NCBI RefSeq assembly: GCF_988243305.1
Contig: NZ_OZ547136.1
DNA: 64,000 bases
Reading direction: 5' to 3' (one strand)
In this document: one piece after another, positions 9,390 to 56,638 of the stretch
How the letters are laid out: each line of letters opens with the position of its first letter
Position numbering within the stretch: the stretch's first letter is position 1
Program-made: the position numbers and the translations under genes
The notes under the pieces: model-generated
The model's database searches: none
Told to the model about the DNA's origin: nothing
What the model saw: the letters and a program-made list of their open reading frames with translations, nothing else

Positions 9390-9924
9390 GGCCGCAGGCT
9401 GTTACTCCTGCGGCCGGTTTCGGGCGCATATTGCCATCACGGCAGCCTGACGCCCGTTTTCACCTTACTTCCGGTTACGCCACCAGCTGACAATCGCTGC
9501 GGTAATAATTCCCGCCAGGATCGGTGCTGCCAGGTCGTGCCAGAAAGTCATGGCAAACTGCGCGAGCGTCATATAGCCGCCTTGTTGTAATGACAACATT
9601 TTGCGGCTATTCTTGAATTGTTCTGGTTCAAGATTAGCCCCCGTTCTGTTGTCAGGTTATACCTCTCAACGTGCGGGGGTTTTCTCTTTCCAGCAACCAA
9701 TGCCACCAGGGATAGAGCCCCCGCAACATTGCGCCTCACCGGATAACGCCGGCTTGGTGTGGATACTACGACTCAATTAATCTTCACTTCATCCCTGAAA
9801 TGTATGCAATGAAGAGTGCATTCCGGTTTTTCAACAGCTGTTACAGTCGTTTCATGAGTGCTCTGGATGATGCTTCCAGCTCGGGTTGCCAATATTTACT
9901 TGTGGAAGAGATAAAGACAAAAAA
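9390..9924. repeat. long direct repeat (LDR) unit 1, about 535 bp, carrying an ldr toxin gene and expected Rdl antisense sRNA region
   Basis: 9390-9924 is repeated almost identically at 9925 to about 10400; corresponds to the LDR elements between kdsA and chaA in E. coli. Confidence 0.85.
9465..9572 (-). CDS. ldr: type I toxin-antitoxin small toxic peptide Ldr (35 aa)
   Basis: Minus-strand ORF MTLAQFAMTFWHDLAAPILAGIITAAIVSWWRNRK; below the 60-aa track cutoff; matches the Ldr toxin family. Confidence 0.8.
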   Translation of the reverse strand: MTLAQFAMTFWHDLAAPILAGIITAAIVSWWRNRK

Positions 9925-10400
9925 GGCCGCAGGCTGTTACCCCTGCGGCCGGTTTCGGGCGCATATTGCCATCACGGCAGCCTGACGCCCGTTTTCACCT
10001 TACTTCCGGTTACGCCACCAGCTGACAATCGCTGCGGTAATAATTCCCGCCAGGATCGGTGCTGCCAGGTCGTGCCAGAAAATCATGGCAAACTGCGCGA
10101 GCGTCATATAGCCGCCTTGTTGTAATGACAACATTTTGCGGCTATTCTTGAATTGTTGATGGTTCAAGATTAGCCCCCGTTCTGTTGTCAGGTTTTACCT
10201 CTCAACGTGCGGGGGTTTTCTCTTTCCAGCAACCAATGCCACCAGGGATAAAGCCCCCGCAACATTGCGCCTCACCGGATAACGCCGGCTTGGTGTGGAT
10301 ACTACGTCTCAATTCATCTTCACTTCATCCCTGAAATGTTTGCAATAAAGAGTACATTCCGGCTTTTCAACAGCTGTTGCAGTGGTTTCGTGCAGGTTCT
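9925..10400. repeat. long direct repeat (LDR) unit 2
   Basis: Second tandem copy; homology to unit 1 decays near 10400 before chaA. Confidence 0.8.
10000..10107 (-). CDS. ldr: type I toxin-antitoxin small toxic peptide Ldr (35 aa), second copy
   Basis: Minus-strand ORF MTLAQFAMIFWHDLAAPILAGIITAAIVSWWRNRK; one substitution (I vs T at residue 9) relative to copy 1. Confidence 0.8.
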   Translation of the reverse strand: MTLAQFAMIFWHDLAAPILAGIITAAIVSWWRNRK

Positions 10401-26169: not shown

Positions 26170-26188
26170 GCGAATTTTAGTTTGCATA

Positions 26189-26214
26189 GACCCCGCTTCG
26201 GCGGGGTTTTTTTA
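26189..26214 (+). terminator. rho-independent terminator after narI
   Basis: GC hairpin CCCCGC-TTCG-GCGGGG followed by a T-run directly after the narI stop. Confidence 0.8.
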
Positions 26215-26232: not shown

Positions 26233-26310
26233 AGTTGTCGGATGCGCTTCGCTTATCCGACCTACAGGGGAGGATATTGTAGGTCCGGTAAACGCGGTGC
26301 CATTGGGTAG
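26233..26310. repeat. REP/BIME-like palindromic units
   Basis: TGTCGGATGCGCTTCGCTTATCCGACCTACA and an inverted partner (TGTAGGTCCGG...) resemble REP extragenic palindromes. Confidence 0.6.
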
Positions 26311-26350
26311 AATTAGCTCGGAGTAACAGGTTTTGAGTATTTACAGGAAG

Positions 26351-27063
26351 TGATGGTGGTGGGGGAAGGATTACTCAGCGCTGCGCGCTTCACCCTTCGG
26401 GTCGTTGCCTGCGGCAACGCTTTCTCGCTGGCGCTCGAGTCGCACCTTGGTCGAAGCTTCTCATCCTTCCCCGCATGGGCAGAATATTTAATTGCGGATT
26501 CGTTTGAGAGTTCACGGACTTTTGAAAAGTGATGGTGGTGGGAGAAGGATTACTCAGCGCTGCGCGCTTCGCCCTTCGGGTCGTTGCCTGCGGCAACGCT
26601 CTCTCGCTGGCGCTCAAGTCGAACCTTGGTTGAAGCTTCTCATCCTTCCCCGCATGGGCAGAATATTTGATTGCGGATTCGTTTGAGAATTCCGGGGCTT
26701 TTGAAAGTTATGGTGGTGGGGGAAGGATTACTCAGCGCTGCGCGCTTCGCCCTTCGGGTCGTTGCCTGCGGCCACGCTCTCTCGCTGGCGCTCGAGTCGA
26801 ACCTTGGTCGAAGCTTCTCATCCTTCCCCGCATGGGCAGAATATTTAATCGCGGATTCGTTTGAGAGTTCACGGACTTTTGAAAGTGATGGTGGTAGGGG
26901 AAGGATTACTCAGCGCTGCGCGCTTCGCCCTTCGGGTCGTTGCCTGCGGCAACGCTCTCTCGCTGGCGCTCGAGTCGAACCTTGGTCGAAGCTTCTCATC
27001 CTTCCCCGCTTGGGCAGAATATTTAATTACGGATTCGTTTGAGAGTTCAGGGACTTTTGAAAG
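26351..27063 (-). repeat. rttR: about 178-bp tandem repeat array downstream of the tyrT-tyrV tRNA genes (rtT RNA / tpr region)
   Basis: Four tandem copies beginning near 26351, 26529, 26709 and 26886, each opening with TGGTGGTGGGGGAAGGATT that mimics the tRNA-Tyr 3' end; known architecture of the tyrT operon. Confidence 0.85.
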
Positions 27064-27066
27064 TGA

Positions 27067-27151
<85 letters not shown>

Positions 27152-27185
27152 AGGGGTAATTCAAATTTTGAGGTAATGCTTGAGA

Positions 27186-27270
<85 letters not shown>

Positions 27271-27429
27271 ACGGGGTAATGCTTTTTACTGGCCTGCTCC
27301 CTTATCGGGAAGCGGGGCGCATCATATCAAATGACGCGCCGCTGTAAAGTGTTACGTTGAGAAAAATGAACTGGTTGCGTAATTTTCACCCGTAACGGAT
27401 TAAAGGTAACCAGTTATTTTTGCTGGCGA

Positions 27430-56585: not shown

Positions 56586-56638
56586 GGGCGGCAGAGCAGT
56601 CACGGAGTAAAACTGATACCGCCAAACGTCACCAGAAA
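56586..56638 (-). ncRNA. dicF: DicF small regulatory RNA (ftsZ-targeting)
   Basis: Reverse complement reads TTTCTGGTGACGTTTGGCGGTATCAGTTTTACTCCGTGACTGCTCTGCCGCCC followed by a T-run; matches the 53-nt DicF sequence as recalled, with its 3' terminator hairpin. Confidence 0.75.

Follow-up and report, generated by a model that had tools for sequence, protein, structure and literature searches.

Genetic organization of the tyrT locus

The feature described here lies in a window of 64,000 nucleotides (the whole stretch of DNA that was analysed; NCBI RefSeq assembly GCF_988243305.1, contig NZ_OZ547136.1), in a region with the gene order narJ-narI, repeat array, two tRNA-Tyr genes and purU-ychJ. This order is identical in the tyrT locus of K-12 and in Ecol_316, the closest complete genome among the matches listed, in which PGAP annotates four 'RtT sRNA' genes. 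The two tRNA-Tyr(GUA) genes are located on the minus strand and are recognized by both ARAGORN and Rfam: the equivalent of tyrT occupies positions 27186-27270 and that of tyrV positions 27067-27151 (GTA anticodon in ARAGORN; 53.4 bits with the Rfam tRNA model), with a spacer of 34 bp between them that was delimited by sequence comparison (27152-27185). A tyrT promoter-like site upstream of the tRNA pair on the same strand (27321-27348), composed of TTTACA, a 16-nt gap and TATGAT with a TG extension, is a candidate by consensus matching (10 of 12 positions). At the far edge of the intergenic region, the convergent narGHJI operon ends in an intrinsic terminator on the plus strand (26188-26209), while a terminator scan of the region found no minus-strand intrinsic terminator 3' of the array. 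The stretch from the narI terminator to the distal array end also contains a REP-like imperfect palindrome (26250-26294), the 17-nt arms of which, CGCTTATCCGACCTACA and TGTAGGTCCGGTAAACG, are 82% complementary.

Two plus-strand open reading frames, 26671-27042 (123 aa) and 26861-27334 (157 aa), run antisense to the repeats and the tRNA genes, and K-12 annotates a similar one, ychS (b1228). Both were rejected as genes and are regarded as mechanical read-through of a repeat that is antisense to the RNA. Elsewhere in the window, two plus-strand matches to rdlD-family antitoxin RNA (9620-9685 and 10156-10221; 87 and 83.6 bits), 536 bp apart, indicate a tandem ldr/rdl toxin-antitoxin module; K-12 carries three ldr/rdl copies at the corresponding locus, and this count may be another copy-number difference from K-12. 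A minus-strand match to the DicF antisense RNA (56586-56637; 76.7 bits), about 30 kb from the tyrT locus, suggests prophage-derived sequence there.

Structure of the repeat array

Tandem Repeats Finder reports positions 26348-27085 as one tandem array with a period of 178, 4.1 copies, 94% matches, 0% indels and a score of 1341, in a register that opens with the last 19-20 nt of the tyrV equivalent. A repeat search of the window returned four in-register copies spaced by 179, 178 and 178 bp, and parsing with the anchor ATGGTGGTNGGNGAAGGATT sets the unit starts on the plus strand at 26353, 26532, 26710 and 26888; the anchors that follow the fourth unit fall at 27066 and 27185, where the two tRNA-Tyr genes have their 3' ends. 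Together with the unit alignment (93% mean column identity), these analyses define an array of four TLR/RtT units on the minus strand at 26353-27065, with unit lengths of 179, 178, 178 and 178 bp from left to right on the plus strand. The initial annotation had described four copies of a 178-bp tyrT repeat here, and its coordinates, unit length, count and motif are borne out by Tandem Repeats Finder, the repeat search, the anchors and Rfam. In transcript order, the anchor-parsed minus-strand units are u1 (26888-27065), which adjoins tyrV, u2 (26710-26887), u3 (26532-26709) and the distal, 179-bp u4 (26353-26531). They differ pairwise at 6-13 positions, and the nearest relative of u3 is the distal unit of K-12 (4 differences) while that of u4 is u2 of the same array (6 differences).

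On its 5' side each unit consists of a C-rich and G-poor linker of about 58 nt (16-18 C vs 6-8 G), which is followed by a structured RNA of about 120 nt. In the consensus fold of an eight-unit alignment, a 10-bp closing helix pairs GGGGAAGGAU with AUCCUUCCCC and internal hairpins are present; a few base pairs are kept despite substitutions in the divergent spacer unit of K-12. A mimic of the tRNA-Tyr 3' end, which had been noticed before, is present in every unit. Compared with the tRNA 3' end itself (AATCCTTCCCCCACCACCA), the 19-nt motif is exact (19/19) in u2 (26711) and u4 (26354) and has one mismatch (18/19) in u1 (26889) and u3 (26533). However, it had been taken to start the repeat, and because both the genes and the repeats are on the minus strand, the mimic, AAUCCUUCCCCCACCACCA in the transcript, closes each unit in the RNA.

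One base deserves separate mention. Position 26896 is A in the window and G in the eight closest genomes among the matches listed, and this is the sole difference across 1301 bp. It falls in the tRNA 3'-end mimic of u1, just outside the closing helix, with CCCCUACCACCA in place of CCCCCACCACCA, and may be explained by a mutation private to this strain or by an error in sequencing.

The units as members of the RtT family

The Rfam family RF00391 (RtT) matches the minus strand four times, each time over model positions 1-130 of 130 and with E-values of 1e-27 to 1e-29 (gathering score 45). The matches, which are far beyond chance, are located at 26889-27020 in u1 (136.1 bits), 26711-26842 in u2 (131.6 bits), 26533-26664 in u3 (127 bits) and 26354-26485 in u4 (131.2 bits). 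They thus score above the curated gathering threshold over the full model, and they share two further properties of the family, i.e., identity with a tRNA 3' end and a site directly downstream of a tRNA gene on the same strand (the array starts at 27065). The RtT element of u1 together with its 5' linker (26889-27059) matches the annotated K-12 rttR, the window coordinates being obtained by offset from positions 2067-2237 of the K-12 locus sequence (L001). From the K-12 rttR annotation and the literature, a discrete processed RNA of about 171 nt is predicted here.

The family, first seen in 1978 and named and described as TLRs (Rudd, 1999; PMC8144298), has 22 copies at ten loci in K-12, every one of which has, as its last 18-19 nt, the 3'-terminal sequence of the tRNA or rRNA that precedes it (PMC8144298). 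Since the 3' 19 nt of the units correspond to the tRNA 3' end, this hallmark is present in the window. The sole functional claim made for the rtT RNA has been withdrawn and TLRs 'have no known function' (PMC8144298). TLRs of rRNA operons (RrA/B/F) bind Hfq and CsrA in vitro, while those of tRNA operons score below 0.01 in a CsrA predictor (PMC8144298). The idea that the present units, like RrA/B/F, might act as a CsrA sponge was dismissed on the basis of this published predictor score.

Tpr reading frames

The initial annotation had named the region as the source of the rtT RNA and of a small basic Tpr peptide. This stands insofar as u1 corresponds to K-12 rttR and contains a Tpr open reading frame of 29 codons (26910-26999, minus strand), the translation of which is identical to K-12 Tpr (b1229). 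The Tpr peptide itself is only predicted, and is listed as a 'predicted protamine-like protein'. A second full-length Tpr-like frame with one substitution, C17G, was found by translation in u2 (26732-26821, minus strand), and the frame is shortened to 9 codons in u3 and to 24 codons in u4. K-12 has one full-length Tpr frame, and the copies in its u2 and u3 stop after 5 and 9 codons, respectively. In the consensus fold, the Tpr start codon lies at alignment columns 68-70, inside the closing helix (columns 60-69). The Shine-Dalgarno-like AAGG lies directly against the ATG, which would make for poor initiation geometry.

Copy number in K-12 and in the window's own lineage

The count of about three units that the initial annotation gave for K-12 agrees with the 3.1 tandem units found downstream of tyrV in MG1655 and with the 178 bp x 3.14 attributed to the K-12 repeat in passages of two later papers (Egan and Landy, 1978; Bosl and Kersten, 1991; via PMC8144298 and PMC3318445). 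Rfam detects a fourth RtT element in MG1655 (L001 2364-2495, 132.9 bits) inside the 209-bp tyrT-tyrV spacer (L001 2330-2538). This spacer unit is 175 bp long and divergent, with 43-46 differences from the tandem units. The junction of the window spacer lies exactly at a shared 20-bp motif (ATGGTGGTGGGGGAAGGATT), and the operon order is thus tyrT-tyrV-RtT x4 in the window and tyrT-RtT'-tyrV-RtT x3 in K-12. Because the spacer RtT of K-12 is absent from the window, the operon totals are equal (4+0 vs 3+1, downstream plus spacer units). The initial annotation had called the array expanded and had named the same four-unit array in reference strains as evidence against this. The K-12 total is also four, genomes with five and six units exist, the locus is the known marker ms09, and at least 15 complete genomes carry a colinear four-unit array with 98.5-99.9% identity; the description as expanded is therefore not supported. 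With a 1301-bp locus query, 11 records among the matches listed aligned as a single colinear block with 99.8-99.9% identity, as did a further four with 98.5-99.6%.

Among the matches listed, 17 records, which include duplicate assemblies or members of the same clone, have 2-kb flanks 100% identical to those of the window: 11 of them are 4+0, four are 6+0, one is 3+0 and one has four units and a single tRNA gene. THO-008 (ST393), with flanks 100% identical, has six units in the order u4-u3-u2-u3'-u2-u1. In terms of the unit types of the window, this arrangement is the array of the window with a duplication of two units (356 bp), and it is a direct footprint of unequal recombination. Four units are the commonest state in the lineage of the window, within a species-wide range of 0-6.

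Population survey

Coverage of the whole array by BLAST was rejected as a measure of copy number, as genomes with two units are also 100% covered by overlapping pieces. Because whole-array coverage is misleading, 5,426 complete E. coli genomes were queried with a sequence made of the two flanks alone, 1 kb from narJ/narI followed directly by 1 kb from purU, and copy number was read from the span of the flank-to-flank match, some structures being confirmed directly. A span of 2936 bp corresponds to 4+0, as in the window, and one of 2931 bp to the 3+1 of K-12; 3+0, 2+0 and 1+0 give 2757, 2579 and 2400 bp, the span without any unit is 2222 bp, and 5+0 and 6+0 give 3113 and 3292 bp, respectively.

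The survey rests on two rank-spaced samples and two best-match lists from a clinically biased collection with near-duplicate assemblies, and its frequencies are to be read accordingly. In the first sample (51 rows with joined flanks), totals of 0, 1, 2, 3, 4, 5 and 6 RtT elements occur in 1, 13, 14, 9, 12, 1 and 1 rows, respectively; the corresponding numbers in the second sample (52 rows) are 1, 17, 13, 7, 13, 1 and 0, where the 17 one-element rows include five with an IS4-family insertion that were taken as 1 by analogy with the first sample. The range across the sampled complete E. coli genomes is 0-6 downstream units, 0-2 spacer units and 1-2 tRNA genes. A total of four RtT elements is found in about a quarter of the sampled rows, nearly all of them with the 3+1 span of K-12, and about 31 of the 103 rows with joined flanks have 0 or 1 unit. 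Setting aside the top own-lineage record of each sample, four or more downstream units occur in only two sampled rows, strain 103 (5+0) and PEC1009 (4+2). Further arrangements include 5+0, 3+2, 4+2, 2+1, 1+1, 0 and a single tRNA gene: two spacer units are present in E2528-C1 and PEC1009, BL21 is 1+1, and the K-12 derivative ER3413 is 2+1, i.e., one unit below MG1655. The flanks are unjoined in about 14% of the sampled genomes, as exemplified by EC32 (L003 1-3878), in which tyrV directly adjoins an island and RtT units are absent.

The EC32 island codes for an F390 synthetase-related protein, a PAP2 phosphatase, a sterol desaturase and a fatty-acid desaturase, and in the island-type genomes (about 14%) narI is located elsewhere. 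At least seven rows, including UTI89 and PMV-1, contain an IS4-family transposase in the narI-purU interval (~1.72 kb).

The array as the VNTR marker ms09

The same repeat is in use as a typing locus. ms09 is a locus of Shigella/E. coli MLVA with a 179-bp repeat. In 80 E. coli isolates it was found to have nine alleles with 0 to 7 copies, amplicons that ranged from 445 to 1432 bp, and a Simpson diversity of 0.81 (PMC8215070); the locus is named SF2 in a Shigella flexneri MLVA scheme. The published primers (PMC8215070) bracket the array: the forward site lies at 26297-26316 on the plus strand with 3 mismatches, and the reverse site at 27288-27308 on the minus strand with 1 mismatch. The K-12 sites have 0 and 1 mismatches, respectively, the latter being the same as in the window. 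Because of the three forward-primer mismatches, PCR efficiency could suffer in the window strain. In silico, the ms09 amplicon of the window is 1012 bp (26297-27308). With primers that bracket the array, a matching period (178/179 bp) and a polymorphic copy number (0-6 downstream units), the region belongs to ms09, and copy-number variation of this exact array is thus already established.

Interpretation and alternative explanations

Taken together, the region is very probably a four-unit allele of the tyrT-operon TLR (Rfam RtT) array, the copy number of which changes by recombination in a neutral or nearly neutral manner. In the proposed mechanism, the units would be co-transcribed with tyrT and tyrV from the tyrT promoter. 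Because their last 19 nt, CCA included, are those of mature tRNA-Tyr, cuts by the tRNA 3'-processing machinery are possible; as the literature leads one to expect, this machinery would cut after each unit and free rtT-type RNAs. Rho may terminate transcription of the array, as the C-rich linkers and the result of the minus-strand terminator scan suggest. Copy number would change when 178-bp units undergo unequal homologous recombination or when replication slips from one to another, and the shared 20-bp tRNA-end motif would also allow a tRNA gene (119 bp) or a spacer unit (175 bp) to be lost or duplicated. Because the RNA is without demonstrated function, we infer that the variation in copy number is most likely neutral or nearly so. 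The conserved RNA fold, and the maintenance of the family at about ten loci in K-12, hint at some function.

The initial annotation had proposed that repeat number alters the dosage of rtT RNA and Tpr. A selected expansion, in which an extra unit raises rtT RNA and/or Tpr, could draw on the four RtT elements in one tandem block, the two full-length 29-codon Tpr frames (u1 and u2) where K-12 has one, and the predominance of four units among flank-identical relatives (11 of 17 among the matches listed). The dosage effect is nevertheless unsupported and such an expansion is very unlikely: with its spacer unit, K-12 likewise reaches a total of four RtT elements, some strains lack the units altogether, 0-1 unit is common (about 31 of 103 joined-flank rows) and another 14% or so of the genomes have no array at this position. 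Furthermore, the rtT phenotype has been withdrawn, and no function is known for TLRs (PMC8144298). The Tpr frame also speaks against dosage, since its start codon in the closing helix, with AAGG abutting the ATG, would initiate poorly and the frame is not conserved between units (broken in u3 and u4 of the window and in u2 and u3 of K-12). Kupper et al. in 1978 and Rossi et al. in 1981 reportedly located a Rho-dependent stop within the second repeat, in which case little transcription would reach the distal units. A literature search for a Rho-dependent terminator in the repeat found nothing usable.

Termination has also to be considered as a role of the array itself, which would then stop transcription from the very strong tyrT promoter, or insulate the convergent narGHJI operon from it, with more units giving fuller Rho-dependent termination. 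The position between convergent operons, the failure of the scan to find a minus-strand intrinsic terminator after the array, and linkers of about 58 nt with 16-18 C vs 6-8 G, a composition typical of Rho-loading sites, fit this idea, but strains with 0-1 unit and the same narI-tyrV arrangement are common, and the REP-like palindrome and the narI terminator hairpin also intervene, which leaves it very improbable. There is equally little probability that TLR unit number, which is 3, 4 or 6 behind identical 2-kb flanks, is a fast-switching dial with a set state selected in the phylogroup-D-like lineage of the window. If this were true, the dial would control either how much rtT-type RNA and second intact Tpr peptide is made or how completely Rho stops transcription toward the convergent nar operon, and the four-unit, no-spacer haplotype would be the selected state. 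That the fourth unit arose by mis-assembly is the least credible explanation, to the point of being almost negligible. Short-read assemblies can miscount 178-bp tandem repeats, but the units of the window are distinguishable (6-13 differences per pair), which makes collapse or expansion in assembly unlikely, and 11 records from different laboratories among the matches listed share this array with 99.8-99.9% identity over 1301 bp (four more at 98.5-99.6%), with a single-base difference (26896) between the window and its best matches.

The feature is thus an ordinary allele of a known VNTR in a known RNA family and, as such, already known. Since the locus varies over very short evolutionary times (3, 4 or 6 units with identical flanks), it is well suited as a marker and ill suited to conclusions about function. 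What the result records is a single allele of a repeat that has long been known and is in use for typing, which matters little, and the window adds nothing decisive on the role of the TLR/RtT RNA.

Comparison with known systems

Compared with the TLR family, the units of the window show no structural difference: full-length covariance-model matches, tRNA-end identity and location in a tRNA operon are all alike. Relative to the ms09 marker, the amplicon takes in both tRNA genes and the variable spacer as well as the array, which explains the half-integer alleles that have been reported.

The closest counterpart is the K-12 tyrT repeat (rttR b4425, tpr b1229), which has the same locus, strand and 178-bp unit and an identical proximal Tpr frame, the units being on average 93% identical. 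The two differ in the number of tandem units (three in K-12, four in the window), in the tyrT-tyrV spacer (209 bp with a 175-bp RtT element vs 34 bp without RtT), in the number of full-length Tpr-type frames (one vs two) and in the base at 26896 in the tRNA-end mimic of u1, which may be private to the window. Comparisons with K-12 should include the RtT element of its tyrT-tyrV spacer in the count.
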